A stretch of DNA of 64,000 bases from Octopus vulgaris (lineage: Eukaryota), in contig OX597816.1 in NCBI GenBank assembly GCA_951406725.2, positions 93,372,001-93,436,000 on the forward strand. The letters run 5' to 3'. Below are positions 1-33,449 of the stretch, in pieces. The translations under genes were made by a program, and so were the position numbers. The notes below the pieces were generated by a model. That model had not been told where the DNA came from. It worked only from the letters and a program-made list of their open reading frames with translations, and did no database searches. Every line of letters begins with the position of its first letter. Position 1 is the stretch's first letter.

Positions 1-730
1 CATGTTTGGGTTATCTCTATCTCCAGATCTTTGTAATTCAAGAGTTTTGCCATTTCTTTTAGAGATACATTGTCATTTGCTGGGATTAATACGTTGATTA
101 CAAGACACTGTCAACTATATCCAGTTATTACCTGTGTATATTGGCATATCCCAGAGTATGGTTGCTTTGTCCTTTTCAGAGACTTTTTACGCCTATACCA
201 TCTTTTCTTTTATCATGCCATAGTGTTGGCAAAACTTCCAGTGTATACAGATCCCAACTCTGTCATGTCTGTGGATATATTCCTTCTTAGCCAGAACTGG
301 GCTGCCAGTGACAATATGATTTATTGTTTCTTCCCCATCACCATATATTCCGAAGTTACTTATAGTATTTTTCTTCATTATGTGTTTCTAGTGGTTTCTG
401 TAGAGAAGCTTTGATCTTGTGCTGCAATTAAAAATCTTTCAGTCTCTAGTTTGAGTCATGAGCTTTTCAACCATTGTGAAGATTTTACTTTTTCTATTCC
501 TTCACTGTTTAGCTTATCCCAGTATTTCCCATGTAAGGGCTTTTCTTGCTATCTTTTTATCATGGTATTTTGTTGTTCCAGTTTTAGTTTAGATTTCACT
601 TGCTTTACAGCTTTTGCAATTTGCTCATTTTTTTCATAGTTGTCAGGTACTATGACCTCTTTCTTGTATTTTCCGGCTTCTTTAAAGACAGAAAACATTT
701 TTCCTTTGCTCATTTTGTGGTTATTTGAAC
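1..730 (-). mobile_element. Decayed Dong/R4-clade (RLE) non-LTR retrotransposon, C-terminal fragment
   Basis: ORF 193..378 reads GDGEETINHIVTGSPVLAKKEYIHRHDRVGICIHWKFC, the zinc-knuckle/RHD region preceding the restriction-like endonuclease of R4/Dong; many stops and frameshifts. Confidence 0.8.
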
Positions 731-889
731 TAGTTTTCCTTGGTTCTGATCATCATCATGAAAAATCTCAACTGGACATGATGGAAAGTGTCAGTAGACT
801 ATGGTGATCCTTGTTTACTGATTGTGCTTCAATAACCCTGCAGAGAACTCTTGAAATTCCAAGCAATGAGGATTTTGTATGTGTTCTAT

Positions 890-1990
890 CTTTACATTTG
901 CTTCAATCTTTTTGAAGCCATGTTGATAGCTGGGTACTGATACTCCCAAGTGTACCATTCACTATTGTTATCATGTTCCCTTTCTTCAGTGTCCACAACC
1001 TGTATATTTCCCACTTTTATTCATCAAAGTTCTTCACTTTTTCTTCTTCTTTCTCTTCACTCCTGTTGTCACCAGGACATGTTGTATCAATTATCAGGCA
1101 TGTTTTTTACTTTTTTGTTCATTTCAACTATGTCAGATTTTTTATCTTTAACCTGTTAGTCAGACTCAATCATTGTATCCCACAGGATTTTGCAATCCTC
1201 ATTCTCAGTAACTCCTTCTGAGATTTAGTCATACCACATCTTTGATCTTTCTAAGCCATAATTTCCACAAAGCTCCCAATGGGTCATTCTTGCCACACTG
1301 TCATGTTTCATTTTGTATTAATGTTGTGCCAATTTCGGGCATTCACTAACAATGTGCCATACTGTTTTACCCCTTTTAACACACATTCTGAATTTGTCAC
1401 TCTCAGTTGTTTTATCAATTCTGCATTTCACATACTTTGTTCTCAATGCTTATTCTTGTTCCATACTTATGTAATTCTGTTTCTATCTTCAAGTCACTCC
1501 TCCACATCAATAACCACCAGAACTTCCGTATTTGTCTTTGCACTCATATCTCTTGCAAACTGACTGAACATTTTTTTCCTTTCCGATGTCATTTCTTTTT
1601 ATACGTATGCTCTTTTCCTTGTTAAATTTCTCTTTCTCCAAACAATTATCAGTTTGATGATGCCTGATTTCACATGCATCAACAATGGTTCTACTGAATT
1701 TTTTGCATACCACCCTAAACTGTTTTCCTCTGATTCAACACAATCATGACAACCGGTTAAATCTCTGCCACACTTTCTTCTGGAAAAGTGCAACTAATCA
1801 GTGTCACTGTTGGGATGAAATACTCTATACAATATGAATAATTTCTGTTTCTTCTTATCCATACTCATCAGTTTATCCTTCTGCTAGTTTTATGATTCCA
1901 TCATGGAAGATTTCTTATATCTGCATATCTAAAATGCTGAATCTGTAGATTCATTTAAACATTCATTAAGATATGCTGTGCCATAAGGTG
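890..1990 (-). mobile_element. Second decayed Dong/R4-clade fragment (thumb, zinc knuckle, RLE)
   Basis: Minus-strand remnants: GCHDCVESEENSLGWY, TVWHIVSECPKLAQ, and CLIIDTTCPGDNRSEEKEEEK (PD-(D/E)xK nuclease region). Confidence 0.7.
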
Positions 1991-3662
1991 ATACTTGAAA
2001 ATAAGTGACTGGGAGTATTTTAAAAATAATAACAGCTATAGCATGGGTATTTTCAATAGTTAGCATAAGGTATCCATCCATCTCAAGGCGAAAAAGTTAA
2101 ATATTTATATCCTGCTATAAGCACTATAATGGACACCAGCTGAGATTTCTGAATGCTTTAGGCCTAATTAATCAGGTAACAGAGTAATTCAGTAAAAGAA
2201 CGGTGATTTGCAGTGATGAGTTGAAATCTTTTCATGGCATTTTTAATTAGGGTCTGATTTAGGCTAAAATATTTTAAATTAAAGAAAAAAAAAAAGATTC
2301 ACTGATGAAGTTATGGCACCATCACTAGTAATATTACAAAGTAGTAGCAGAAATACCATCATTCTTGCCTTCAAGACTTATTTATGTTTGTATTCCGCTG
2401 TCTGAAAATGTTATATTTAAAACATTATTATTCATTCTTTGGCATTGTCATGGAGATACATTCCAACAATTCCCACCTTTTGGTTTAAGGTTAAATGCAA
2501 TAATCAATCATTTTTGTGAAATGACATTTTTCTCCCTTCTGTTAGACATTTTTCTTTTTAATTCTAAAAACAACATTACCTTTTGGAATCTTTTTCAATT
2601 TCTTTTTTATACTTCTTTTAATTCTAAAGAAAACAGACCTAGTAATTTTTTTCTTTGCTTTGGTTTTAGTAAGACTTCATTAAAATGCAAACTTATATTT
2701 TAAGCAAATGGTAATGCTATGGATGCAACTTCTGAAGAAGTTTAACACGGTTCTAACTTTACTATATCAAAGATAATAAATAAATGAAATTTATATTATA
2801 CGAGCTGTATTTCTCTGTCCATCCATTACAAACTAATCTCAGATTAAGATGATATTCAATTTATTTAAAGTAAACGAAATAAATTTATTCACTGAATTCA
2901 CATATACAATGTAAGGAAAAATAAGGTTTGTGTTTTATTTTCGATCAAAGTTTATTTTTCCAAACATACCACAAAAAAAAAAAATTACCATGACTATTTC
3001 ACTTTCAAATACAACAATAGATGGTGTGATAAAAATGAAAAGATAAAGATGGAGAGACTAGAAGAAGAAAGAGAAAAGTAACAGAAATAGCAATAGATTT
3101 ACTAAAACCCTCAGTAAAATAGTAAATTCTGCTGTAAGCCTATTTTCATTTACTGAATGCTGTTCTTTCTACTACTTGAATCTACTTATTTTTGAGCTGA
3201 GTAAACTATTTACAAAAAAAGCTTTCAGTCAATAAAGCAGTCAATTCTGTTGTTTGTGAGGTAAATATATTATTTTCCACTTAAATATTTGTTGATATAC
3301 AAAAATTGTAAAATTTTAAAATGTCATTAAAACATTCATTATTGTGAATAAAAATAATTCACTGAAACTTGTTAACCACATTGATTATGCATGAGGAAGT
3401 TTTGGCTCAGATATTTCATCTTATGTTGTGAACAAAATTATTATTTAAAAATTCTCATTGCCATTTATCATCTGTCACAAATATCACTAATATACACACG
3501 CACATATTCACAAATGGGATATTGTTTATGTAGTCATTCAGCTTGCTAGAAATAGTGGCCACATCTTCATAAAATCAGCAAGGAAGACACATCTTAATGA
3601 TAAAAACAGAATCTTGTCTAGGTTCTGTTTCAACCATTATGATGTTTCTTCATTAAGATGAC

Positions 3663-3950
3663 AGAAACTGAAAGAAGCCCGTCATATATATATATATATA
3701 TATTTATATGTACATATGTATGTGTGTGTGTATCTATGTCTGTGTTTGTCCCCCATCACCACTTGGCAACTGGTGCTGGTGTGTTTACAGCCCCGTAACT
3801 TAGCAGTTTGGCAAAAAGAGACCGATAGAATAGGTGCCAGGCTTAAAGAAAAAAATAAGTCCTGGGGCAAATTTGTTCAACTAAAACCCTTCAAGATGAT
3901 GCCCCAGCATGGCTGCAGACAAATAACTGAAACAAATAAAAGAAAAGAAA
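3663..3950 (+). mobile_element. Octopus-type tRNA/CORE-like SINE, 3' half
   Basis: GAAACTGAAAGAAGCCCGTC-(TA/TG)n-TGTTTGTCCCCC...CCCCGTAACTTAGCAG...CCAGCATGGCTGCAG...GAAACAAATAAAAG. The same family recurs at about 14519, 14836, 19890, 31485, 33270, 61380 and 63885. Confidence 0.75.
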
Positions 3951-4612
3951 AAATGTCATCTACGTAGATGTAAATTTCATAAAATATATGTGCTGAATTT
4001 GCAGAAAATAAAATAGGTTTTGAAAATATATGTTTTTAGTTAAAAGAAGCTTATTTCTTAAGCCTTTGTTCAGAAAGGCAACCTACATTTCAATAATTCA
4101 CCTAATTAAAAAGTATCTAATATAAAATCTTTTCTTCTGAAAATAAAAATAGAAGGAAAGCTAGTAAGTTTTTGATTCTTTTAAAACTCTTTGTAGTTGA
4201 ACTGAATATATTAAAGATAGTATTTTAAATGAATAGACATTTTAAATTTAAAATGTTGCCATCTTCATATCTGCAATGCTATTAGTATCAAACTAGTAAT
4301 GATAATTTGACCTTTAAAATATTATTTTTATTTGGTCATTTGTTTGTTTATTCATTTAATATCCACTTTTGCGGGGGTTGAACAGGGACTTATTTAAATC
4401 AGGATTTTATGGCCAGCTGCTCTTCCTGTCACCAACACTTAACTGTTCTTCATGTAAATGATTTCACATTTTGTTTTATTCCTAAGATATTCGAAAGCAT
4501 TGAGTAATATGTCAGTATTCATGCACATTTGTATGCACATACACACACATACATACACACACACATTAGTGTACACACTCACATATATACATAGCCACAC
4601 ATACACTCACAA

Positions 4613-4649
<37 letters not shown>

Positions 4650-5269
4650 GAAACTTGTCTCACACACATAAAAAACATCCACTACTCTTGGTGTAGTTTG
4701 CGTTAGGAAGGGCATACCAAATCCAACTGGAACCTGGTACAGCTCTCCAGCTTACCTATTACAGTCAAGCCATGCCAGCATGGAAAGCATATGCTAATTG
4801 ATGATGATGATGATGAATTATCTGAACATAGAAAAAGGATTAGTTTGTATTCTTTGTTACTTATTAGTTCTTAGATCTTTGCCATTTTGGTGTTCAAGCA
4901 TTTAAATGCATAGCAACTGGCTGCCTTTCTTAAAGCTAACTTCTCAATTATGAAGGAAAAGTAGTTTCTAATTTCAATTAAGTTAATGCTTTTTTATCAA
5001 CTAAAATTGGTGGGAGTGTCTGAAATAGAGATCAGACAAGAAATGATAAAAAGAAAAAGACTGAATATTTTTTATTGACTTCTAATATTAATTTTTGGTT
5101 TATGTTTAATATTAATTCCATTTCAGTTTTTAAATATATTTTAGAATTTTATTTTCAAGTATGGAAACATCACACTTTTACCATTTTGAAATTTAATCAT
5201 TAAAAGAAAACAAATCTGAAAGAACAGAATTTTTACTGAAATTTCTTTTTCTGTAGATATATGTAAATA

Positions 5270-7121: not shown

Positions 7122-8049
7122 AGTGTTGCCTACATTTTGCATGAGAATATCATGTGACTTAACTTGATAGTCACATAATGAAGACAGTTTAACATGGCAG
7201 CCCTTTTCTGTGTCAAAAAGGTGTTCTTTAATGATATCTGAGGTGAGTAGGACAGAAAAAAAGAAGCAAGGAACACCCAAAGATGAGAAAGAGAAAGCTG
7301 ACTGCTATCAGTGAGCCAAGATCCAACAATCTTGTACAAAAACTGTTACCAAATATTTCAAATAAATCTGGGTTATCAGTTATGTGTGAATCCATGTTTA
7401 AAGCAAGCAAAAAACAAAACAGGTATTTGAAGTGGGTAGGACAACTTCTATGATTGAAAACGACCACAAAACAAGAATCTGTGCGACTTCAGTTTTACTT
7501 CATTATTCAGTTGATAAAGGCCAGCTGAAGTAAGGGGTTATATGTAATTACTTTAATAAGCATTTTACTGTGGGATTCTGTTAATAGTTTTGAACAAGCT
7601 TATCTGTCCAGGGAAATAGATACAATCTTCCTTGCAATAGTAATTTCTTCTAAATGATGACTTGAAAGATATGATAATTTTTTAAGACTAAAGGGTGTTA
7701 TTTAATAGAAATTGGATCACTATTTCTAGCAGGTCAAACAGCCTCTTATATGCTTCAGTGTTGATCTATTTGGTAACGACCAGAAATGTAAGGTTGTTTC
7801 TGTACTCTTGTAAGTTAGTCAGTGAAATTATAATTTATTGTTGCTAACTTTACTGCTTTAATCATCATCCACTTTAGCACTACCTTCAAATGGCATTCAG
7901 TTACCTTTAGCAGAGCTCTCTCTCTGTTGCAAGCATTCAGGTCAGGTCTCAGGTTTAAGGATAACATTCTCTCTTCATCCACCAATCTAAGAGGCACTCA
8001 AAAAATCATGGATATTGTCCTTTTCCTTCAAAAATTTTTTTAAAAATTG

Positions 8050-8314
8050 GGATCTTTTCAGTTTGAAGGCCAGATTTTCTTAGTTAACTAAACAATTTGA
8101 AACTTCGTATACTGGTAGAATGTGTCAAAAGAAAACATAATTGTAAACCAAAATGAAAACGGAATTGTAATTTCTAAGTTTAACGTTGTTTAATAATTCG
8201 AATTTTAACCAATGATATTCTTTCTTTCGACCTCATATTATTTACTGCCTCTCAAAATATTGTTACTGTGACGTAAACAGCTATTTTGTGACGTAGTTAA
8301 CGTAAACATGTAAA
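8050..8314 (+). repeat. Left long terminal inverted repeat
   Basis: Reverse complement of 30514-30778, 256/265 identical by hand alignment; no nearer partner TIR seen. Confidence 0.92.
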
Positions 8315-8963
8315 CAGACCTACAGATTCGTTTGTAACGTAAACATCCGTTCATCGTAAATAGCTAAATTCGCTTGGCATCGTACACAGCTTTTTCAGTT
8401 CCCTAGAATTATATTTCAAAGAAAATAAAAAGAAAAAGATTCATACGCATAAATATCCATCCTTAGACATCAGAAAATGAGTGTTTAAATTATTTTCCAT
8501 TGTTTGCATTGCTTACACACACACACATACATACATACACACATACTAAAATTACATCGTTGGAGCAGTAATTTATTTATGTATTTTTTGTTATACAATT
8601 TATTTTAAAGCTGAATCCCTATCCTGCCATTAACCCCTTTCTTATAAAATAGTTGAAGAATCTGGGGTGTAGGTATTGGGCCAGTATTGGAACTTTTAAC
8701 TTCTTGCTCTCTATCTTATGATCTCCGAAATTTAAGAATCTTGTGTTAACTCGGCTCTTATTATTTACTCTGACTCTGCCACCACCTCAATGCAAAGACT
8801 ATCAATATCAGAATCATCTTCACAACCACCACTACAACCATTACTACAACCTCGAATGCCACCACCACAACCATCTTCTGCAACCACAACCCCAAGATCA
8901 ATACCAGCATCATATTCAAAATCACCAATTTCACCACCACTACACTCTGCAATGTCTTCAACT

Positions 8964-16940: not shown

Positions 16941-19638
16941 TTGTTGTTGGCATCCTTTTTGTCTCGGGAGACAATGGAGTTGCGCATAAAATAATCTTGT
17001 CCGGCTTTTACATTTCATGTCCTAATACATCTCTTGCTGTGGCTGTGTAGTCCTATCCGGGACAAACACTCCCTCTGGCAGGTGCGAAGACTTTGCCTGA
17101 CTGGTTGTAATGTCATAGTTTCTTGTTGACGTCTTTTCTTGTCTTTCCATTTCTCCTTTCTCACTGTGTCACTCCTTTGTGTTCCCTCTTTCACGGTACG
17201 TCGCCAATCTCCACGGTTGCTGGCAACTACTTCCCAGTTGGTAATATTGATGTTGCAGGCATTCATGTCCCTTTTGCAAACATCCTTGTATCGTAAGAAC
17301 GGTCTTCCCACAGACCTAGTGCCCCTAGCAAGCTCTTCGTTGAGTATGTCCTTGGGGATTCTGCCATCTTCCATACGGCTAACATGTCCAAGCCATCTCA
17401 TACGTCTTTGTGTGAAGAGTGCAAACATGCTTGGTATTCCTGCTTGCTTGAGAACATCTTTGTTAGGGACATGATTCTGCCATTTGATGCGATGGATTTT
17501 CCGGAGACAGCGCAGGTGAAAGATATTTAGGCGATGTATGGCGTCGTATGGCGTGTGTATGGCGTCAAAGTCATACAGTAGAGTGCTAAGTACACATGCC
17601 TGGTAAATCTTCATTTTTGTGGTCTTGGTCAGCTTATTGTTGTCCCATGCGCGTTTGGTGAGTTGGGCCATCACAGCAGCTGCCTTGCCAATGCGTATAT
17701 TGAGCTCAGCATCAAGGGATAGGTTGTAGGTGACGGTAGAGCCAAGATAGGTAAACTTCTCCACCTCCTATACTCTGTGGTCTCCAATATGTATGTTTGG
17801 GATGTCCGATGTAGCCTGACCCATGATGTTGGTCTTCTTGAGGCTGATAACTAAGCCAAAGTTGCCAAATGCTTGCTCAAAACAGTTGCTGAGCCTTCGT
17901 AGGGCTTCTTCTATGTGTGATACCAGAGCGGCATCATCAGCAAATAGCATCTCCTTGATCAGGATGCTTCTGAAATTTTGGTCTTGGCACGCAGACGCGA
18001 GAGATTGAACAGTTCCCCATCACTTCTACTGTGCAGAAACACTCCATCATCTGATGTCTCAAAGGCATGTGACAGCAGCAGCGAGAAGAAGATGCCAAAT
18101 AATGTAGGAGCAAGGACACAACCTTGCTCTACCCCATTTTTTATTTGGAAGGCGGCTGATGTTGAACCATTGTGCTGTATGGTGCCTTGCATATTAGCAT
18201 GGAATGATTTGATGATCCTCAGCAGCTTTGGTGGACATCCGATTTTTTGGAGCAGGATGAAGAGGCCTTTTCTACTTACCAAGTCAAAGCCCTTTGTCAG
18301 ATCAATGAAGGCCATATATAATGGCATGTTCTGCTCTCTGGACTTCTGAAGTTGGCGTATGGAGAATATCATGTCAATAGTTGATCTGCTTCTAAAGCCA
18401 CACTGCGATTCTGGATAAATTCGAGAAGCAATTAGTTGCAGTCTGGACAGGATAATGCAAGCAGAGGCCTTTCCAACTGTGCTTAGAAGAGATATTCCAC
18501 GGTAATTGTTACAATCATCACGTTCACTTTTATTTTTGTAAAGCGTAATGATGTTAGCATCCCGCATATTCTGAGGGACTGTACCCTCTTACCTGCACTG
18601 ACACAGAAGCTCATGAATGTGCCGAAGCAGGATGGTGTTTTTGCAGGTTTTGATGATCTCTAAGGGGATGCCGTCTTTTCCCGGAGTCTTGTTACTTGCT
18701 AGGGAGTCAATAGATTTGGTGAGCTCTGCTATAGATGGCAGACTGTCAAGTTCACACATGACTGGCAAGATCTTGACACCCTCGATTGCAGCCTCAGCTA
18801 CCGTGGTCTCTCGTGAGTAGAGATCCTGGTAGTACTCCATCCATCTATCCATTTGCTTGCTTTGGTCCCTGATGAGATCTCCAGTAGTTGATTTCAGAGG
18901 GGCTGAGGTATTTGCGGATGGACCGAGGGCCTTCTTCAAACCGGCATACATCCCACGGGTGTCGCCACTGTCAGCAGCTGACTGGATACTCTGACAGATT
19001 TCCTTTCAATACCCATTTGCATAGCGTCTGGCAGTCAGTTGGGTTTTATTTCTTGCCTTTCTGAGTTCTTCGTGTGACTTTGTAGAAGAACCACTCTTGT
19101 ATTGCATCAGAGCTGTACGCTTTGCTTCGATAACTGGTTCCAGCTCTGAGAGCCCAGCACTGAACAAAATCTGGGTTTTACCTTTCTCTCATTCCGAAAG
19201 CATCTATTGATGTGGTATACAAAGCTTCCCTGATATAATTCCACCTACTTTCAGCAGAGGAGGTTGGGCAGCTACTGAGGGCAACCTTGATAAAAACAGC
19301 AAAACATTGTCGCAGTGTAGGGTTCGAGGTTCTGGCAGTGTTAATGCGTGGTTGGCTAATTTTCTTGGAGTGATGGACTTTTTAGGCAGAATCCTCACCC
19401 TTCTTATTAGTGAATGATCTGTCTCACAATCCGTGCTACGGGTCAGTTGAACAGAATTCAGAAAGGATCTTTGTGTAATGATGAGATCCAACTGATGCCA
19501 GTGGTGAGATCTTGGATGTCTCCAAGATGCCTTGTGGGATGTCTTGTTAGGAAAGAATGTGTTGGTGATGCACAGGTTATGGTATGTGCAAAATTCAAGT
19601 AGTCTCTGGCTATTGTCATTCATGTTGCCAATACTAAA
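16941..19638 (-). mobile_element. 5'-truncated RTE-clade LINE (end of APE domain + RT), frameshifted
   Basis: WRHPRSHHWHQLDLII, NYRGISLLS, PESQCGFR, FIDLTKGFD, QGCVLAPTLF, LFADD, RWLGHVSRM, SRIGLHSH; (CAA)n tail at 16941. Confidence 0.95.
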
Positions 19639-19706: not shown

Positions 19707-19769
<63 letters not shown>

Positions 19770-20330
19770 CATACATATATATATGTATGTACACACACAC
19801 ACACACAAAGATAAATTGATAGATACAACTGAGTGGGCAAACAAAAATGTGAGACACTGCGTAGAGCTTTTTTAAATTTTGATAAGCCTGGTACTTATTC
19901 TATCAGTTTCTTCTTGTGAAACCAGTATGTTATGGGGATGTAAATAAACGAACACCAGTTGTGAAGCAGTGATGAGGGAGAAACACAAAGACACATACAC
20001 AGACTTACATACATACATACATACATATATATACGATTGATTTCTTTCAGTTTCTGTCTACAAAATCCACTGACAAGGCTTTGGTTGGTCTTAGGCTATA
20101 GTAGAAGACACATGCCAAGTTACCACACAGTGGGACTGAACTGAGAACCATGCGTTTTGGAACCATAAGAATACTTATGCATAAATCTAAAATCTTAAAT
20201 AATTTCTTTGTTATTGTAGTATATATCAGTAAAAAATGGAATATTCCCAAAATTGCATGATTAACTAAATGATTTCCATTTCTTATTTAAACGTGGCAAT
20301 CCTCTTGAAAAAATTGTGAACCCGATAGGA

Positions 20331-22184
20331 GGTTTGAGTTCGGTAGGAACACGTGTCGGAAATATATGCGTGTTGTTATCTGTGACTAGACGGTGAAATT
20401 TTTTCTGTGTAAATTGATTTGATATCGCGCGAGGCGTTTGCCTCCACGTGTGGAAACCTTCCGAAGAAGGTGAATTGACCCTCTAGTCATGGCGACTTAC
20501 GCGGGGGTCACCGGGAAAAATAACGATTCGTCGATAATCATAAAGGAGGTTTTCTTTGAGAAGGATAAACTCAAAGAATATGAAAAGCTCTTCAAAAGGG
20601 AGGGTGATAGCGTGAAGCTAATCACCCCGCGAAAGCAAAAGAGGATAAAGAAAGCAAGACAGTGACATACAGAACCCAAGACAAAAATACGAAGAAACTG
20701 GCAAGAGTGGAGATAGTCGAAATTGAAAAATGTCTGGGAGACATAATGGGGAAAATAACCTACGTGAGTAGAGGCAAGAAATTTGGTACGGTGGAGGTGA
20801 GATGTGCAACGGAAGAAATTGCGACCTCACTGGCTACCACCGTACTAAGAGCCGAAAAATTCACAATGTGGCCCTCATACAAGGGAAGAAGAGGGGTCCG
20901 GGTTAAAATCCCGAATATACCCCCAGAAGTGAAAACAGAATGGCTGGCAACAGCTATTCTAGGAGCAGCAGAAGAGGAAGTGGAGGTGGAATCTATTAAG
21001 GAGTCCAACGCGGTAAACTGGAGAGGATATGGGGTAGAATTGTGGTTGATGGCCACAAAAGAGGATATTGAAAGGTTTCCATACAGAATTGAAATTGAAG
21101 AGGAAAAAACCCTCAGCGTATTTGTAGAGGGGAGAAAACCAAACTGTTACTTGTGTGGGACAAGGGGGCACATTAAAAAAGAGTGCCCGTTATACGAATT
21201 CGTAGCGGAGTGCGAGCAGGAACTTGAAGAAAAGAAGAATACTGTAAATGAGAAAGAAAACATAGAAAAGGAAACAAAACAACAAGAGAAAGGAAATAAT
21301 AAGTCAATGAAGGAAAAAGAAATAAAAGAAAAGAAAGAAATAGAACCAAAACAGAGTCAGGAAAAAAAAAAAGGAGAAAGAAACAGAGAAAAGGAGTCAG
21401 GAAAAAAAAAAGGAGAAAGAAACAGAGAAAAGGAGAAAAAAAAAGGAAAAAACAAGAGAGGGATCAGAATCAAACGAAAAGAAAAGACGGCACACAAAAG
21501 GAAAAAGAAAAGGAACATAAAACACGAGAGAAAGAGAGAACAGAGAAAGAACCAAAAAGACAAGAGAAGGAAGGAGAAAGAAAAGAAAGCAAAAAGAGAG
21601 AAAGAGAGAAACAAAGAGAGGAGAACAAGGAAGAAATAAGCCCGAAAAGGAAAATGAAGGAAAACGTAGGACGGAAACAAGATTACTATTACTACAAGTT
21701 AGTAACCTTCCATTTCTGCCCTGAAATGAAAGACTTGACATGTAAAACGGAGGGACATATATGGGTCAACAGGATGACCGATCGGTGGCGGGAGACTGCT
21801 CTAATCTCCGAAGAAAGAGTCGCTGAGTTCCTCAGAGCTGCCGGAGAGAGTGTAATATTTTACACGAAGGTTCGAATGAGAGAGCGGCTGCCTGAGGGCT
21901 CAGTGATAGACTTCAGAGAAGTGGAAACTATGATAGAATATGTATAGAATTGTGTAAAGAAAAAAAAAAAAAGAGAAAAAAGAAAATTTTGTGAAATATA
22001 TGTGACGAAAATGTAACCTCTCGACTCCGGGGATCGAGTGGGCATTTACATCTCATTGTAAATATTCTTTCATATGTCATTTTTTACTTTTATTTTTTCC
22101 TTTTCTTGTCATTCGCTTTCTTATTTTAAGTTCCCCGATTGTATTGTCCCCTCTATGTGGCCCCTAGTGGGTAATAAAGAAATA
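20331..22184 (+). mobile_element. ORF1-only non-autonomous Tx1-related retroelement (half-LINE)
   Basis: Begins GGTTTGAGTTCGGT like the LINE at 22194; the last 48 nt are identical to 27374-27421; flanked by CCGATAGGA (20322-20330, 22185-22193); no endonuclease or RT sequence. Confidence 0.85.
20489..21947 (+). CDS. Tx1/L1-type ORF1p (RRM-like region + CCHC knuckle + K/E-rich linker + distinct C-terminal domain); frameshifts in A-runs
   Basis: MATYAGVTGK start; core in ORF 20662..21639 with VFVEGRKPNCYLCGTRGHIKKEC (CX2CX4HX4C); tail domain in ORF 21654..21947. Confidence 0.8.
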
Positions 22185-22423
22185 CCGATAGGAGGTTTGA
22201 GTTCGGTCGTGTTTTTTTGCGTTTATTAGTAAGTTGATATATTTTTGCTCTCGTATTGTTATCTCTGTTATTCTATACTGTCTGTCTACCTGTTTTGTTC
22301 ATTGTTGTCTAACTGACGAAGTCAACCTTCGCGCGAGGACTTCGCGTTGGTGTTCCCCCTCCGTGGGGGAAAACTACAATTAATTTGGATTTACCAAAGG
22401 CTTGTTAAAGCCATTTGCTCAAG

Positions 22424-23773
22424 ATGGAGTCCCCCATCTCTTATTCGCCCGTGACGAGCGAGGATGAATACCCGGCGTTGTCGCCAAGAAAAAAAGAGGC
22501 GTTGTCGCCGAAGAAAAAAGAGGCGGCGTCGCCCAATAAAATGGAAAAACCAGCACCAGCATCAACTCCAGCGAAAAAATTCGCTGAAGTGGCTGGGAAA
22601 AAGATTAAAAAAATAAATGTAGAAAATTTGGAAAAATTTTCAGACTGTGTAAAAAAAGAGGGCACAGAAGTGACTGTGGTCACAAACGTACAAAAACAAG
22701 ATATAGAAAAAAAAGAATAATATATAAAACTTACAACACAACGACAAAAATGATTCAAAAAATCGAAGAAAAAAAAATAGAGTTTTGTCTAAAACCTTTA
22801 ATGGATAAAATAACCTATATAAACAGAGGGAAAAGATACGGCACAGTGGAGGTGCGTTTTACTACTGAGGAGATAGCGAAAAAACTATCGATGGAGCCGA
22901 TCAAAGCAGAAAACATTGTTTTACTACCATTGTATAGAGGGAAAAGGACGTCGAAACTTTCAATGAACAACATTCCCCCAGAGGCAGATGCAGAATGTCT
23001 GGTGGCAGCAGTGATGGTAGGCCTGGAGGAAAAAATAAACATCCTCCAGGCCACAGTGGAGGAAGAGGAGTTTTGGAAAGGGCAGAAAATAGTGATAGCC
23101 ATCCAGGCGGAGGTGCAAACACTGGAAGAAATTCCAGAAACGTTAAAAATTAGTGAAGACGAGAAAATAACAGTTTTCGTGGAGGGCAGGAAGCCGAGGT
23201 GCTTCGGCTGCGGCAAGAAGGGTCATGTAAAGGCGGAATGCCAACCCCAACCCAAACCGCAGGAAGCACCTAAGCCAAGAGAAAAAGAAGATAATGTGTC
23301 ACCAGAAGCAGCGTCGGACGGCCCAGAAGGGAAGACTGAATGTGTGGAGGTGACGGTGACAGCAGAACCAGCGGCGGAGGAAAATAAGAGCGAGGAAAAG
23401 ATAAATGAGGAGGGGTGGGCAAAAATTAGCGGAAAAAAAAAGAAAAACGGAAACCACCCCTCCCAGAGTAATTTTAAAAAAGAAAAGAGAGTCAATGAAC
23501 TCGTATATGGCCGTAAAAGCAGCAAATAGCAGACTCGGAAACGTGTTGGCAGCTATGGCCAAAGTGGAGAAAGTAGTGAAAAAAAACGACTTTGTAATTT
23601 ACAGAATAGGCCGGAAGGATTACGGGCGGATAAAGTCCGAATTCTTCCATGACGTAGGCCCACTTAGATTGGATGTGACATCTCCACATATATTCGAGGG
23701 CCTACGTCAGACTCCCCCACGAGGCCCAGAAAAAGAGTTAGAAGAACAAGAGAAAACCGAACCACTGATATAA
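22424..23773 (+). CDS. Tx1 ORF1p (CCHC zinc knuckle); two frameshifts at A-homopolymers
   Basis: ORFs 22415..22720, 22750..23529 and 23405..23773 join at A-runs; VFVEGRKPRCFGCGKKGHVKAEC. Confidence 0.88.
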
Positions 23774-23782
23774 AGGTAAGTA

Positions 23783-26700
23783 ATGGATTACATTTATGTT
23801 GGTTGTTTGAATGTGCGCGGCCTGGGAGCAGGCTGGAAGCAAGGTCGCTTCCTGCATGATATCAGGTCGCGTAATTTAGATGTTATTGTTGCTACAGAAA
23901 CCCGGTTAGAGGGGCCAAGAGGTCTACTCCCGCTGTTTGACGGCTACGAGAGTTTTTTCTCTCCTGGCAGTCCTACTGGCGGAAGTGGGGTGTTGGTCCT
24001 AATAAAAAGAAACCGGGTTTCTGAGAAAAAGTTAATTTTTGCAGATCCAGAAGGTAGGCTGGTCGTCATGGATTTGACGTTCAGTAACGGTAAAGTTATC
24101 AGACTGGTTGCAATTTACGCACCCAACCATACCGGGCAAAGTGATTATTTTCGTGAACTAGAAAACTTTCTTGGTACTTCGCATTCATTAGTTGTGCTGG
24201 GAGATTTTAACACAATTTGCAAAGCGGATGTAGATTGTGTTGGCTCGCGTTCAGATAGAAAAGGTAACAGTGGCTTCATGGAACTGCTAAGCCGCTTTGA
24301 GCTAGCAGATCCTTATAGGCTGGAATTTCCGAACGCTCCATTGTGGACATGGTCAAACAGCGACGGATCTTCCAGGTCATATTTAGATAGAATACTAATT
24401 AGAAAAGTAGACAGAAAAATAGCTAAGTGTCCACAGTTTTACCCGATCAGCTACAGTGATCATAAAATGGTCACCTGTAAGCTTGACATAGATAAGGTTA
24501 AAAATAGAGGATCCGGTTACTGGAAACTTAATACGTCCCTTTTGGCGATTAAGGAGTACAAAGACCGGATTAGGACTATAATTCAGAGGGCACTATCTGG
24601 TACCATCATTAATAACAAATGGTGGTACGCCCTCAAACGAGCCATCAAGTTCGAGTCAATTAGATATAGCATAGGAGTAGTGGCTAGAGAGGCTAGGAGA
24701 AACTACTCTAGTTAAGGAATTAGACGAAGCCTTGAAAACTGGCTCTGCGGCTCAGGTGGCGTCCAAGAGACTGGTGTTAAACCAGCACCTCGAGGCCAAA
24801 CACATGGGCTGCATTGTCAGGGCTAGGATCCGCGCAATAGGATGTGAAGGAATCAACGCCGTGAGATGGGCCCGAGTGGTGGAAGCCAAGCGTGGTAACG
24901 ATGCCACGATTCGATCTATGACGAACCAACAAGGTGAGTTGATAAACGAGCCCGAGGAGATGTGTGAGGCCTTTCAGGAGCACTTCGCTCAGCTTTTCGG
25001 TGAGTGCGGCGGACTGGATAGGAGGAGGGCCTTTACGGACCTACTCGACGGGCTGCCGCGCTTATCGGGGCGAGATGCGGAGGGCTGTGAAGGGCCAATC
25101 ACGCCTGAGGAAGTGGTTGAGGCAATGGCGGACTGCGGCGCGGGCAAGGTGCCGGGTTTGGATGGTCTACCCTATGAGTTATATAAGAGTATGCCAGACT
25201 TGTTCGGGCACCTACTGGCGGAGGTCTATGCGAACTGGCAGCAGAACGGGCTTATACCCAGATCTGTGCGCCGGGGAGTAGTGACACTCGTCAGAAAGGA
25301 CCCGAGCAAGGGGGAGTGCATTGATAATTTCAGGCCCATCACTCTGCTAAACACAGAGTTGAAGATTTTGGCCAAAGTGTTATCGAAAAGATTGGCGCGT
25401 GTCGCGGATGGTCTGATCGGGGAGGCACAGACATGTGCCGTTCCGGGCAGAACTATTCAGGATAATCTCCATCTAATGCGGTACACTATAGAGGGGTTTA
25501 ATAGTGATTCTGGCAAGGGTGGGGCACTGGTCCATTTAGACCAATCTAAAGCATTTGATAGGGTCGACCATCGGTACCTGGTATCTGCCCTGGCACAGTT
25601 CGGGCTGAGCCTTGGCTTCCTCAGGTGGATTATACAAATTTACGATAACGTCGACTCGGTAGTTCGGGTGAACGGCTTCTTGTCGAAGCCGTTCAACATC
25701 AAGCGCTCGGTTCGTCAAGGGTGCCCGCTCTCCCCGCTTTTGTACGTGATGGCTCTTGAGCCATTACTGCGAAAACTGAGCGGCATCCCGAGACAGCCAG
25801 GTAGTGGAAAATCGGTGTCAGCGTACGCGGATGACATCACCATCATCGTAACCGAAATGGACCACCTATGTAAAGTAGGCAAGGCCATAGAGGTCTACGA
25901 GACGGTGACAGGAGCAAAAGTTAATCGCGAAAAGTCAGTCGGCTTGCAACTCGGCACCTGGAGAGGCAAGTCGATGCCTCCTGACAGCGTCGTGGGACGT
26001 TGGACGGAGGGTCCGATTAAATTGCTAGGGGTCTGGTTCTGTCCAGACCTCCAAATAGAGAAGAATTGGGGCGAGGTAACGAGCAGGGTGGCTACAGTAA
26101 CCAAGACCTGGTCTTGGCGGTGGTTATCCCTGAAAGGGAGGGCGGAGGTGGCCAATGTGTTTATCGCATCGGTTATCACCTACCGCCTTTCCGTCGTTCC
26201 TTGCCCTGATTCGTGGTTGATCAAGTTGGAAAGACAGCTCTTCTACTTCTTGTGGAAGGGCGGCAAACCACTTGTGAAACGCTCTACTTGCTGTCAACAA
26301 CCGTTAAAGGGTGGGCTAGGGATGCCTTGGCTGATGATGCGCAGACATGCGCTGAGGTTAAGACATCTGTGGCTCTACCTGGATGGTGAACGGGTGTGGT
26401 CTCCGCTAGCAAAACTGATGTTTCCCAAGTTCACTAGTTTCGGTGGATGGGAAACCTGGCTGAATCGTAGATCGAAACTTGGTACTTGATACACGGAGTG
26501 TCGCAAGGCTCTCCTGCTATTCCGTCGCTCGGGCAACGCCTGCGGTGGGGGTTCCACCACATTCTTCTATAGAGGGTTGGTAGAGGCGGGATGTGAAGAT
26601 GCCTTGGGGGAAACCCTAGGTCTCGACGATAATCAGCTGGCCAGTCTGTTCCGACGTACGTTCAAGCCGAAGACACTGGACAACTTCCAGAAGTCTCTGG

Positions 26701-27176
26701 CATGGCAATGCTACAGAGGAGCTCTACCTGTTCGGGATAAACTCGCAAGGCACGGTGGCCGAGACAGTCCGATATGTCCAAGATGCGGGCGGGATAGGGA
26801 AACCGTCCCGCACGCTATTGTTCATTGTCCGGACGTGTCTGAGGTGTGGGTTTATGCCGAACAGCTGTTGTCAAGTACACGAAGAGTACAGCTGTCAACT
26901 GAGTCGATTACAAAAATTGACCCACCGGATTTCCTCGCGAATGAAGGTAAGTTTCGTTTTCTCGTTGTAGTAGCAATTGCGAAAGAGGTGATATGGAAGA
27001 CGAGAATGAAAGGTCTACAGTCAGGCAAGTTCATCTCCGGCCCTGGTTTGATGAATTATTTCATCTTTCACCTGAAAAGGAAGATAGGGCTGGAGAGAAT
27101 ATGCCTGACTAAGAGAGTGTATAAAGAACGATGGAAAGATGTAGCACGAAAGTTGCGAGTGAATGATACAACATAA
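23783..27176 (+). CDS. Tx1 ORF2p: AP endonuclease, reverse transcriptase, C-terminal zinc finger; one frameshift (~24700) and one in-frame stop (26487-26489)
   Basis: LNVRGL, TETRL, LGDFN, YLDRIL, SDHK; PGLDGLPYELY, FRPITLLN, LDQSKAFDRV, RQGCPLSPLLY, YADD; CPRCGRDRETVPHAIVHC. Confidence 0.95.
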
Positions 27177-27668
27177 ATGTAACACCAAACGAAACCAAAA
27201 GTATCAGTGGGGAGGCGGGGCTCGTGGGGTCTGAGCTAAACCCGCACCCACTCCACCCGTAATGTCTTCCGGTCTGTTCCAACATTCGATTTCTTGCTAT
27301 TTTTGTAAATTTCTGTAAATTTTTAAAATTCGCTTTTTTGTAAAACCCATTCGTGTGTCTGACCCCATCATCAGATTGTATTGTCCCCTCTATGTGGCCC
27401 CTAGTGGGTAATAAAGAAATACGATAGGATGTTACTTATTCATCGATACTCAAAAACTGAACTTTCACCAACTGAATACTCGTCATGTAGTGCCTTACTG
27501 CTTTCTGCTGGATTTTACCTCGAGAAAGGAACCCTGAGGAAGGAGGGCTGAATTTCGAATACTTCGTACAACAAACGGCTGCAGGTTAGGAAAAAAAATT
27601 TAATCGCCTCTTTCAATTTAGGTTTTCATTTTTCATGTTTTTATTTGTATTTCATTGTTATGTTTATA

Positions 27669-27883
27669 TTGGGTTGTCCGGAAAGTTCGTTCCGATTTTT
27701 AAAGGAAAGTACATGGTCACTAAATACTCTTCCCAGAATTGGGGTGGTTTCAAGGCAAATAATTCATCAAGGTATCTTTTTACGTCATCTAAGGAATTGA
27801 AATTTTCACCATTAAGACTATTCTACAGAGACCTGAATAAGTGGAAATCCGAAGGAGTAATATCTGGTGAATATGGAGGGTGG
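27669..27883 (-). mobile_element. Mariner transposon 3' fragment with TIR
   Basis: TA + TTGGGTTGTCCGGAAAGTTCG terminus; minus strand encodes HPPYSPDITPSDFHLFRSL (YSPD motif). Confidence 0.85.
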
Positions 27884-28415
27884 CGAAGGCAAAATACCAG
27901 GGTATGAAAATGGTAATATTGCCATCGATTCCATTTGTACCATTGTTAAGACGCCTCCTGATCTCAGAGATGCAGTGTTCCCAGATCTACAAGCTAATTA
28001 TCAGAATATGGATTGGATTGGCAAAAAGGCTATACTGGCCCCGAGGAATAAAACTGTTCACCATATTAATGATGAAATGCTAAAACTCATTCCTGGGGAA
28101 GTCTATGTATATCAGTCTATCGATACAACTCCTGACCCAGAGGACGTCATCAACTATCCAATAGAGGTACTCAATTCCTTTGAGCACCCCGGACTACCAC
28201 CACACTTTCTCAAACTTAAAGTTGGTGCCCCTATAATGCTCATCAGAAATTTGGTTCCCCCAAAACAATGCAATGGCACACGTTTGATCGTTAAGTCCTT
28301 ATCTCCCACCGTAAACTTATATCAATATTTGCCTGAATAATCATCATAATTCAGTGCAATCATTAACAGTACTTTCAAGCAATTCAGCCCCGAGCAACGC
28401 CGGGCAATTCTGCTA

Positions 28416-28416
<1 letters not shown>
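27882..28416 (+). mobile_element. Helitron 3' fragment (PIF1-like helicase + terminus)
   Basis: AILAPRN..INDEML..YQSID..LNSFEHPGLPPHFLKLKVGAPIMLIRNL..CNGTRL; terminal hairpin CCCGAGCAACGCCGGG + CTAG-T. Confidence 0.92.
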
Positions 28417-30453: not shown

Positions 30454-30513
30454 TATGTTTGTATACATGTGTGTGTAGCTATTTAGGATCTAGTTAGCTA
30501 TTTTAGTTAGCTA

Positions 30514-30778
30514 TTTACATGTTTACGTTAACTACGTCACAAAATAGCTGTTTACGCCACAGTAACAATATTTTGAGAAGCAGTAAATAATATGAGGCCG
30601 AAAGAAAGAATATCATTGGTTAAAATTCGAATTATTAAACAACGTTAAACTTAGAAATTACAATTCCGTTTTCATTTTGGTTTACAATTATGTTTTCATT
30701 TGACACATTCTACCAGTATACGAAGTTTCAAATTGTTTAGTTGACTAGGAAAATCTGGCTTTCAAAAAGAAAAGATCC
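30514..30778 (-). repeat. Right long terminal inverted repeat
   Basis: Reverse complement of 8050-8314, followed directly by AAAAATTG. Confidence 0.92.
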
Positions 30779-33449
30779 AAAAATTGAATTATGATTTAGC
30801 AATATACCCACAAACCTCCATTGTAATAACATCCAAATAGCTAAGATGGATTACACTTTCACTTATCTCTATAATTATCTCTTTAATTTTATGATCTATA
30901 ATTCAATATCTAACTTCAATGGAGTAATGCTAATTTTATAACTGATTTAGTAATATGACAATAATCAATCTTCTTCAATAGTGAAATAATGAAGACTAAT
31001 ATACCACATAGGTTACAGTTTAATTCATCCCTATAATCATATATTTCTGTTGAAGGTTACAGAATAGCAGAAATGGTAGAGCAATATGTCTAAAAGCATT
31101 ATAATATTTGGTTTAAAATTTCTTTGTTCTGAATTGACTTTGAATTTTATCCTACCAACTCTAATAAAACAAATACCAGTTATATAAATTTATACCTATC
31201 AATTCTGAGATATCTTTCTCATCCTTGAAATATCCTTTATTCCTCTAAGTGTATAATTCCAGTTTATGGTTCTAATATCACTGACTATTTAGCAACATTT
31301 TAACCACAGAATTGTCCCAAAACTTATACTGACAAAATACTGAAGTACTTAAACTTTAACATGTAAGTAAAGTTTCTCTAAATTACTGATTGTCATATGT
31401 GGAAGAAAAGATTTGATTTAACTTAATGTTTAAAATATTACTAACCTTTATGGTTGTTGTATGTTAGAAATATACATAGCTTAAGGCACAGGCATGGCTG
31501 GTGTAGATGTGGCTGGGAAATCCTGAAGTTTGCTTTCCAATCACTTAGTTTCAGGTTCAATACCAATGCATAGCATCTTGGACAAATGTCTTCTACTCTA
31601 GCACAGGGTCAAACAATGCTTTGTGAAGAAATTTGATTAATGGAAACTGTAAGAAGCTTGCTATGTATAAATATGATGTGTGTGTGTGCGTGCATGTGTG
31701 TGTGTGCGCATGCACGCATGTGTGCATGTGTGTGTGTGTGCATGCAACAACATCTCAATATTGATAACCCACAGTTTTACTTGAGTCAAATGTTGATATA
31801 ATGTTTATGACCCTTATTGGCATTCTGACTATGCAGTGAAATTCAAATTTCTTGATTGAAGAAAAGGTAAAGGTTCAAGACAGGAAAAGCATCCAACAGT
31901 AAAATTCTGCCTAAAATATGACAGCATGGAAAAATAAACATTAACTAAACAAACCGAAAGTACAGAAATTTTTAAAGAAATTTTACAGAAGATAAAAAAA
32001 AATACAACATTAATGAAAATATCTTTCTGCTCTCTCTTTAAAATATTTGTAAAACATCTAAAATAAAGTGGAGCATTTCTGTGGTAACAGCTAAATATAG
32101 TTATACAACTTTCATTTTAAAAGAGTTGAGGTCAGAAGAATCATATCATAGACATTTGACTAAACAGAGCAGGAAGAAAAAGATTAGGTATGAAGAAGAA
32201 TGAGATAAAACAAAGTGGTTCTATAAAAATAGATGAGGCACTTAGCAATGCATCGGAAAGAAGATAAATAAATTATTTGTGTGAGTCAAAAGTCAATGCT
32301 ATTTAGAAGCCAAAAGATTTTCCACCCAAATCTCAATCCATTAAGGCTGACACAAACAAAAGAATATTTGTGATTCAATTGAAATTTAAACTATTTCCTC
32401 ATATAGCTTTCAAAAAGGCACGAATCAATTCTGATATTCTCAATATATCTGTCTGTTTAAATGTTTCAGTATATCTATGTAGCCATTTACATATGTATTG
32501 TGGCCTGTATGCTAGAATGAAGAAGTGTACCTGTGTGTGTGTGTGTGTGTCTGTGTGTGTGTGTCTGTGTGAGTGTGTGTGTTTGTGCACGTGTGTAGAT
32601 GCATACATACATATATATAGGAAGTAAGCTCAAACATGCATTCGCTTATGAACATAAGTACGTATATATGCTTAATGTATGTACATATACACACACACAT
32701 ATATACACACACATACATACATATATATATATATATACACACACACACAAATATCTTCATGCATATTATGTTATATCATCATCATCATCATCATACTCAT
32801 CATCATTTTACGTCCTTCTTCTAGGCTGATATGGGTTGGATGGTTTGACAGGATTCAAAATGCTGAAGGATTGCTTTGAGCTCCAACATCTGCTTTAGCA
32901 TAGTTTCTACTGTTGTATGCCCTTCCTAGTGCCAACCACTTTACATGTACTGAAAGTTAGTGTTTTTCTTCATTTTGTGACACATTAACATGAACAATTA
33001 ATTTAGTTTCCGAAAATTATTGAGAATTTTACATAATTGGGATACCTCCACAAATTACCTTTCTTCTTTCACACTAAATATTCATATTATATAATAATTT
33101 TTCCACAGATACTCTTGGACTTATGTATGAATAGTTACTTCAGGAATGAGCTGCTGATGCACTAATCTGGACTTCTCCATATAATATTTTCATTATATTC
33201 TAATCAAAGATGGTGAGCTGGCAGAATCATATTTGCACACTAGATAAAATTCTTATTTTAAAGTCTGGTACTTACTCTACTGATCGCTTTTGCCAAACTG
33301 TTAAGTCATAGAAACATAAACAAACCAACACCATTTGTCAAGAGGTGGTGTGGGGCAAACTCAAACACTAAGACACATACATAGATATAAATATATATAA
33401 ATACATATAAATATATAGATATAAATACATACATACATACATACATACA

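Follow-up and report, generated by a model that had tools for sequence, protein, structure and literature searches.

Non-autonomous long interspersed nuclear elements (LINEs) that contain open reading frame 1 (ORF1) are known from the L1 group (HAL1), from Jockey (HeT-A), and from CR1 (Ag-Sponge) (PMC5786205, PMC5753468); here and below, statements about published systems refer to the portions of the cited papers that were available to us. In Drosophila, about 40% of the telomeric elements are ORF1-only, and these form small ORF1-only clades (PMC13534243). For Octopus vulgaris, the available part of a study of its repeats reports 13 recently active L1-Tx1 families and 8 Helitron families with no mention of ORF1 (PMC13282606), and that of another paper merely lists L1-Tx1 (PMC8967140). 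Here we analyze a 64,000-nucleotide stretch of the O. vulgaris genome (contig OX597816.1, positions 93,372,001 to 93,436,000; "the window"), in which an ORF1-only LINE, element A, lies head to tail in front of an autonomous-type LINE, element B. We found no ORF1-only Tx1 element and no ORF1-only cephalopod element in the literature, and the author of a preliminary description of this DNA was likewise not aware of a Tx1-clade case in cephalopods; Repbase, Dfam, and the repeat library of PMC13282606 may hold unnamed consensuses.

We consider it highly probable that A belongs to an old, selected ORF1-only family with many copies, which likely borrows the endonuclease (EN) and reverse transcriptase (RT) of B-type elements via a shared 3' tail. 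A would lie in front of B because of a common Helitron-type site, in arrays that likely grow at their 5' junction.

Structure of elements A and B

The features of the two elements are as follows (positions in the window).

20331..22184 (+): element A, an ORF1-only non-autonomous LINE; the window copy belongs to subfamily W
20489..21947 (+): A ORF1, 466-469 amino acids in intact copies, frameshifted here; predicted tandem RRM-like domains, CCHC knuckle at 21142-21189, charged linker, and family-specific C-terminal domain
22137..22184 (+): 3' tail of A, 48 nt, the same as that of B; predicted 4-bp stem-loop directly 5' of AATAAA
22194..27421 (+): element B, an autonomous-type L1-group (likely Tx1) LINE; broken copy
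22424..23773 (+): B ORF1, 448 amino acids in an intact copy; core about 40% identical to that of A
23783..27176 (+): B ORF2, with APE endonuclease, reverse transcriptase, and zf-RVT; one frameshift and one stop
27374..27421 (+): 3' tail of B

A is 1,854 nt long and B is 5,228 nt long. As the preliminary description had reported, they share an exact 14-nt prefix and a 48-nt suffix (100% identity, E 3e-20); GGTTTGAGTTCGGT occurs exactly twice in the window, at 20331 and 22194. Beyond these ends, the DNA of A resembles that of B only in a single 81-nt stretch (72% identity). At the protein level, tblastx aligned the two ORF1 cores in ungapped blocks of 110 and 56 residues at 41% identity, which agrees with an earlier hand count of about 40%. 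Pfam identified zf-CCHC in A (E 7e-5) but neither EN nor RT, so A does encode just an ORF1 protein (ORF1p) with a CCHC knuckle, as had been proposed; in B, Pfam identified Exo_endo_phos, RVT_1, and zf-RVT.

A structure model of the A ORF1 core (pLDDT 86.6) had tandem RRM proteins as its best fold matches (E 6e-5, with low TM-scores), so an RRM-RRM-CCHC architecture is predicted for A ORF1p. A search of the ESM Atlas gave only CCHC and ZCCHC3-like leads. For B ORF2, a structure-linked sequence search found human L1 ORF2p (E 5e-50) and R2 (E 5e-24). Judging by its APE endonuclease, an RT that is nearest to L1 ORF2p, and a C-terminal zf-RVT, B belongs to the L1 group of non-long-terminal-repeat retrotransposons. 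It likely belongs to the Tx1 clade: its preference for targets in repeated sequence or DNA transposons is a Tx1-like trait (compare PMC4494074). The database matches of B-type proteins included no Tx1-named sequence.

Both window copies are broken as assembled. A has lost 1 nt near 20622 and has out-of-frame gains in A-runs (21364-21434), while B has ORF1 shifts near 22712 and 23432, a frameshift in EN/RT, and a stop at 26487-26489. In short-read contigs, which pool the whole A family, part of the depth has an extra C at 20624. Among A copies generally, frameshifts are enriched near homopolymer runs (93 of 201, versus a background of 12%; the figures depend on the reference). Sampled words of the window stretch are present in runs under four organism labels. 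No RNA run is listed among the holders of these words, and the contigs that cover the 5' part of A and that we guess to be RNA are not evidence that A is transcribed.

A belongs to a multicopy, selected ORF1-only family

A DNA search of its own genome found 242 candidate places for A, 40 of which scored at 92-100%, and the best 150 hits of a protein search were at 70-100%. A ORF1 also matches proteins annotated in O. vulgaris (up to 98-100%) and a protein from O. bimaculoides (53%). In 30 excised loci, A is about 1.8 kb long, has the tail at its end, and is followed by another A, by B, by another ORF1 element, or by host DNA; in none of these loci is it followed by an ORF2 of its own. One solo copy (L301), with a 12-bp duplication, separates the arms of a host repeat of class T2 (described below) that is otherwise intact. 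Thus, A exists as independent copies of about 1.8 kb with their own site duplications.

The surveyed arrays (20, and then 10 more) contain further ORF1-only families, or half elements, with the same tail: E1 and E2, whose cores are 66-78% identical to that of A, and C, D, and F (31-41%). The preliminary description had paired A specifically with B. This was not borne out, as B shares stacks with at least five ORF1-only groups and A is also found alone or in runs of up to 22.

The ORF1 of A is under purifying selection. On a core of 178 codons, the ratio of nonsynonymous to synonymous substitution rates (dN/dS) is 0.10-0.15 among intact A copies and 0.11-0.16 between A and E. Across F, it is mostly 0.06-0.24, with higher values for an edited copy and a few close pairs. 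When we considered all 73 sampled A copies, including broken ones, variants common to at least two arrays comprised 11 nonsynonymous and 42 synonymous changes (pN/pS, the analogous ratio for variants, of 0.08), versus 18 and 12 for singletons (0.43; Fisher p 6e-4). The proposal that A is a separately evolving family with a working ORF1p, and not a one-off, therefore stands: A is not single-copy, is not always followed by ORF2, and does not evolve neutrally.

How A moves is less direct. It is likely that B ORF2p mobilizes A in trans, given their shared tail and shared sites and an edited retrocopy. The retrocopy is an F-type ORF1-only element (L216; G000:C7:29251599-29259599) in which, at positions where two relatives agree, 122 of 128 changes are A to G on the sense strand, and its ORF is still open. 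L216 is likely an A-to-I edited RNA that was copied back into DNA, presumably after editing by ADAR. Three divergent A-like hits had no A-to-G editing and represent a further subfamily.

Selection on ORF1 could also mean that A ORF1p helps B, much as HeT-A Gag targets TART in Drosophila (PMC5537684), which would make A a cooperator instead of a parasite. The strength of the purifying selection and the constant co-location of A with B fit this idea. However, B keeps its own ORF1; arrays of B in host repeats of class T1 show no half element within the 10 kb fetched; and selection on an ORF1p that acts in cis accounts for the dN/dS without any benefit to B. We think that such help is unlikely, but it could operate in addition to the borrowing of EN and RT by A.

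Landing sites in Helitron-type repeats

The window's host repeat and the element junctions are as follows.

19736..20321 (+): host repeat (site class T1), upstream arm; identity of 98-99% with the empty copies L066, L071, and L330, in which 20321 joins 27441 directly
20322..20344 (+): 23-bp junction before A (9-nt repeat plus 14-mer), the same as 22185-22207; probably a site duplication from A inserting ahead of B
22185..22217 (+): A-B junction, with the 9-nt repeat and then the 5' leader of B, which has about 24 nt in common with the 5' end of the ORF1-only family C
27422..27440 (+): 19 nt that the closest empty hosts lack and that correspond to the beginning of the 5' leader in a different subfamily of B
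27441..28416 (+): downstream arm of the Helitron-type host, with a Pif1 2B fragment (27861-28340) and a terminal hairpin plus CTAG (28387-28416) adjoining (TA)n

Homology between the window host and another filled copy extends upstream to 16709. There were 1,801 candidate places for the T1 flank and 1,909 for T2. By eye, empty T2 copies have TC at one end and a hairpin plus CTAG at the other; in T1, we saw the Pif1 fragment, the 3' hairpin, and CTAG, and the 5' end was not located. We read both hosts as probable Helitron-type repeats, from the signature of Helitrons (5' TC, 3' hairpin plus CTAG, Rep/helicase remains).

Insertions are mostly directly after ...AAC. Of 15 T2 copies from the target search, 11 are empty, which gives the pre-insertion site, and 4 have B as the last element. 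Of 12 T1 copies, 4 are empty, 5 end in a B-type element, and 3 end in A. The A/B arrays lie at internal positions of many contigs, within these Helitron-type repeats, and not at chromosome ends.

Several other repeats were seen in these hosts and in the window. T2 (L164, L166, L170) carries a degenerate ORF1 fragment that is related to the A/B elements; its main landing site is within this fragment, and a second landing site is about 290 nt downstream. Upstream of A, the window's host repeat contains a distant RT fragment (18073-18699, minus strand, 29% identity to B), and 16599-16934 matches, at 84%, the part of the host that lies upstream of the insertion site. The 278-nt segments at 8040-8317 and 30511-30788 are inverted relative to each other and 95% complementary, and they probably represent two copies of one interspersed repeat.

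The 5' junction and the 3' tail

The 9-nt repeat CCGATAGGA precedes both A (20322) and B (22185), and 8 nt of it, CGATAGGA, follow B (27422). A 17-mer that spans the start of B occurs five times in the genome, and four of these are at the 5' end of C elements. An 18-mer spanning the repeat and the 14-mer, AGGAGGTTTGAGTTCGGT, occurs at just four places in 2.8 Gb: the A and B copies of the window and two elements closely related to this A copy. This distribution suggests that an ancestor of B captured the leader of a C element and that A then duplicated 23 bp of the B junction, so that the 14-nt start shared by A and B is likely a duplicated junction. At another locus (L026), the capture of a leader is visible in place.

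We considered whether CCGATAGGA might be pristine host DNA and rejected this, as the empty copies do not have the sequence. A 16-mer from the 19 nt after B occurs 13 times in the genome, 12 of them at element junctions. Because the closest empty hosts lack these 19 nt, and because the 16-mer recurs at junctions and begins the leader of another B subfamily, the window's landing site is itself an earlier junction; either an element was lost there or 3' read-through produced it.

At the 3' end, exact tail variants recur across families. A stem of at least 4 bp precedes AATAAA in 25 of 30 distinct tails, versus 7.9 expected from shuffles, although the tails are related and so the count is not a probability. 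The stems fall into two classes that differ on both sides of the stem. The youngest F copies have the B-type stem, while their closest relatives have another stem, another target, and another partner; we read this change as a switch of donor by tail swap. Only the 3' tail, with its predicted hairpin, behaves like a matched recognition end.

According to the preliminary description, the termini of A and B are identical and are kept matched to the RT donor. The ends are indeed identical in the window, but not across the family: most A tails are 81-90% identical to the B tail, and AGGAGGTTTGAGTTCGGT is at only four places, so we rejected family-wide identity. The matching holds for the 3' tail, which is shared and swappable. 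It does not hold for the 5' 14-mer, which belongs to the duplicated 23-bp junction and is C-derived.

Two other kinds of insertion have similar tails. An abundant tandem unit of 184 nt, which resembles a short interspersed nuclear element (SINE; L038, L134-L136, L149-L150, L157), ends in nearly the tail of these LINEs (hairpin and A-rich end), and so it may share their RT. L073-L076 (arrays C10a and C10b) contain insertions of about 50 nt that consist only of the tail; they separate a B-type element from A, and each is accompanied by a junction repeat of its own.

Order and growth of the arrays

Neighbors from different families share a junction prefix of 9.5 nt on average, versus 4.7 nt when permuted (17 pairs, p 5e-5). 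The derived A subfamily Y, which is nested in M, is 5' of M in 4/4 arrays and 5' of W in 2/2 arrays that hold both; in 10 of 12 arrays, the distance from Y increases toward the 3' end. Among neighbors, A or E precedes B 19 times and C, D, or F precedes A or E 7 times, versus 3 cases of reverse order. B is the 3'-most element in 15 of 17 mixed arrays, which were picked via half-element searches (6.8 expected after collapsing runs; P 2e-5). Arrays thus likely grow at the 5' junction, with the newest copy in front. The polar order of the families may reflect either waves in time or matching of leaders.

These patterns suggest the following mechanism. A RNA would be coated in cis by its own ORF1p, with its two predicted RRM-like domains and knuckle. 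B ORF2p would recognize the tail hairpin and AATAAA in trans and would nick after ...AAC. A and B would use the same site in the Helitron-type repeat, and the upstream ...AAC motif would be retained at the 5' junction only, so each new copy would insert in front and duplicate the first 5-23 bases of the current junction; this would place A in front of B. Transcripts that start within the junction duplication would equip each copy with a short leader that stems from previous landing sites. Of the two window elements, B would have arrived first, with its leader derived from family C, and A second.

We also considered whether the arrays are mainly products of DNA-level events (unequal exchange, or the copying of filled Helitrons), with A-B units spreading as blocks and A seldom retrotransposing alone. 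There are identical copies inside arrays C7 and C22, a four-unit duplication in C10c, and some A-B pairs that are mutual nearest relatives on both sides (C15/C10d and C23/C13). However, across 20 A-B pairs, the distances between the A copies and between the B copies were not significantly correlated (Mantel rho 0.10, p 0.18), so movement of A and B as one unit is unsupported as the rule. Near-identical A copies (0.3-0.8% apart) precede B copies that are 20-27% apart in their 5' region. At the four T1 loci that contain A, the flanking host sequences have no derived variants in common, which rules against their being copies of one filled Helitron. With the solo A copy and its site duplication, and the A-to-G edited half element, we view a mainly DNA-level origin as quite improbable.

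Several observations do weigh against our interpretation, in which a selected ORF1-only family borrows EN and RT and inserts at the 5' junction. Among the 73 A copies sampled, just 3 retain a complete ORF from the first ATG; the copy in the window, too, is frameshifted. An exact empty version of the window's own site was not found. The reverse orders comprise B before A or E (twice) and B before C, D, or F (once), and exceptions to the order occur in C10a, C10b, C13, C15, C10d, and L026, where A is ahead of a C/D-type leader. Part of the array length comes from duplication at the DNA level or from assembly effects: array C7 has six identical A copies, and elsewhere two identical D ORFs are separated by four units. 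To these points we add the relatedness of the tails. B is only the likely mover of A, and a second autonomous clade, G, is present in arrays with F-type halves.

Origin of the ORF1-only lineage

A search with F gave 150 hits that went as low as 50%. Across 39 regions retrieved around F hits, no endonuclease was found behind an F-type core; one region had an F-type core followed by a 5'-truncated RT fragment, and one had no hit. Of 233 intact ORF1 cores, 158 are from half elements, 74 are from autonomous elements, and 1 is unknown. When these were clustered at 90%, each cluster was either wholly ORF2-bearing or wholly ORF2-less; the sole exception was a B copy that had been shortened by a SINE, which we relabeled. 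None of the sampled A/E/F clusters had an ORF2-bearing member.

In an unrooted ORF1 tree of 40 rows, without the hyper-edited copy and with two autonomous clades sampled, one branch divides 29 ORF1-only representatives (families A, E, C, D, and F) from 10 autonomous ones, with support of 91/91. A/E and F are grouped (99/98), which upholds the separation of A from B. The O. bimaculoides protein is sister to A/E (97/96). The simplest reading is a single old loss of ORF2 in the ORF1-only lineage, with the caveats that the tree is unrooted and that unsampled autonomous families are conceivable. It also counts against our interpretation that the 29/10 split is not starred and involves only two autonomous clades. 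It is very improbable that A arose recently from B, or from a close autonomous sister, by internal deletion or by a single recombination event. Such an origin would fit the 48 nt of tail and 14 nt of start that A and B have in common in the window, but the ORF1 cores are only about 40% identical, the remaining DNA is unalignable, and A groups with E and F, in clusters whose sampled members lack ORF2; we therefore rejected recent deletion of B, while an unsampled autonomous sister of A is conceivable.

A more ambitious scenario is possible, although we consider it less likely than not. One ancient loss of ORF2 would have founded a hyperparasitic ORF1-only lineage that radiated over tens of millions of years, changed donors by swapping a hairpin tail of about 50 nt, and landed at sites chosen by short RNA leaders derived from its previous landing sites, which would amount to a heritable targeting code carried by RNA; this would have left ordered stacks of F/C/D, then A/E, then B in Helitrons.

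Some related elements deserve mention. A B copy that is deleted from about 722 to 4982, with both ends kept (L044 and L310-L311, array C15), is a recent deletion derivative, unlike A. Array C10c (L160-L161) has at least 12 consecutive D copies with four-unit periodicity and two identical ORFs that are 6,697 bp apart; C-terminal domains have been exchanged between C and D there. A related ORF2 (cluster of P0076) in the limpet Patella caerulea has many neighboring locus tags, which hints that a relative forms tandem arrays outside of cephalopods.

Comparison with known systems

Published ORF1-only LINEs come from L1, Jockey, and CR1; the present elements add a site-specific system from a mollusc that is likely of Tx1 type, and they show that HeT-A-like mixed arrays exist outside of telomeres. 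Many loci retain insertion order, captured leaders, and tail variants, so that the arrays form a dated record in which several open questions are directly testable: why ORF1 but not ORF2 is kept in cis, by what means passengers change RT donors, and whether second-strand synthesis and site choice are guided by 5' homology, a point that is relevant to gene-delivery tools based on site-specific retrotransposons. The A-to-G copy suggests that the products of RNA editing in cephalopods can return to genomic DNA. L1-Tx1 activity in octopus would be misdated and miscounted with repeat libraries in which the half families are merged with B.

The analogy to HAL1 and HeT-A that the preliminary description drew holds: A has only ORF1, is multicopy with site duplications, has a selected ORF1, and has a 3' end in common with an autonomous partner. 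Like A, the HAL1 elements of mammals are non-autonomous members of the L1 group that encode only ORF1p and need an autonomous relative (PMC5753468, PMC5786205). A is not HAL1 in the strict sense of a mammalian L1 derivative, as it is from octopus and has a CCHC knuckle and predicted tandem RRM-like domains. HAL1 is described as having several independent origins, whereas the 29 octopus representatives are on one side of a single branch. The available HAL1 accounts do not describe site specificity, stacking, or tail swapping. Ag-Sponge from Anopheles is likewise a non-autonomous LINE with ORF1, but it belongs to another clade (CR1), and the available account does not describe arrays or a target site (PMC5786205).

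The target-specific Tx1 elements of crocodilians, which have SINEU passengers, also insert into DNA transposons (PMC4494074). SINEU-3 forms tandem copies around a site duplication, which were interpreted as sequential insertions, and SINEU-2 has 5' extensions. Those passengers are non-coding SINEs, however, and the targets are Mariner, Harbinger, piggyBac, and LTR elements; neither an ORF1-coding passenger nor a Helitron target is described in the available portion of that account (PMC4494074).

A further parallel is offered by HeT-A and other ORF1-only telomeric Jockey elements (PMC13534243, PMC5537684, PMC5786205). As in octopus, ORF1-only families with a selected ORF1 lie head to tail with ORF2-bearing partners, and ORF1-only lineages spawn new ORF1-only lineages. 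The HeT-A group belongs to the Jockey clade, is found at chromosome ends, makes no site duplications, forms clades of 2-6 families, and is described as having a random array order. In contrast, the octopus elements belong to the L1/Tx1 group, occupy many internal sites in Helitron-type repeats, have a site duplication at each junction, and form ordered stacks.

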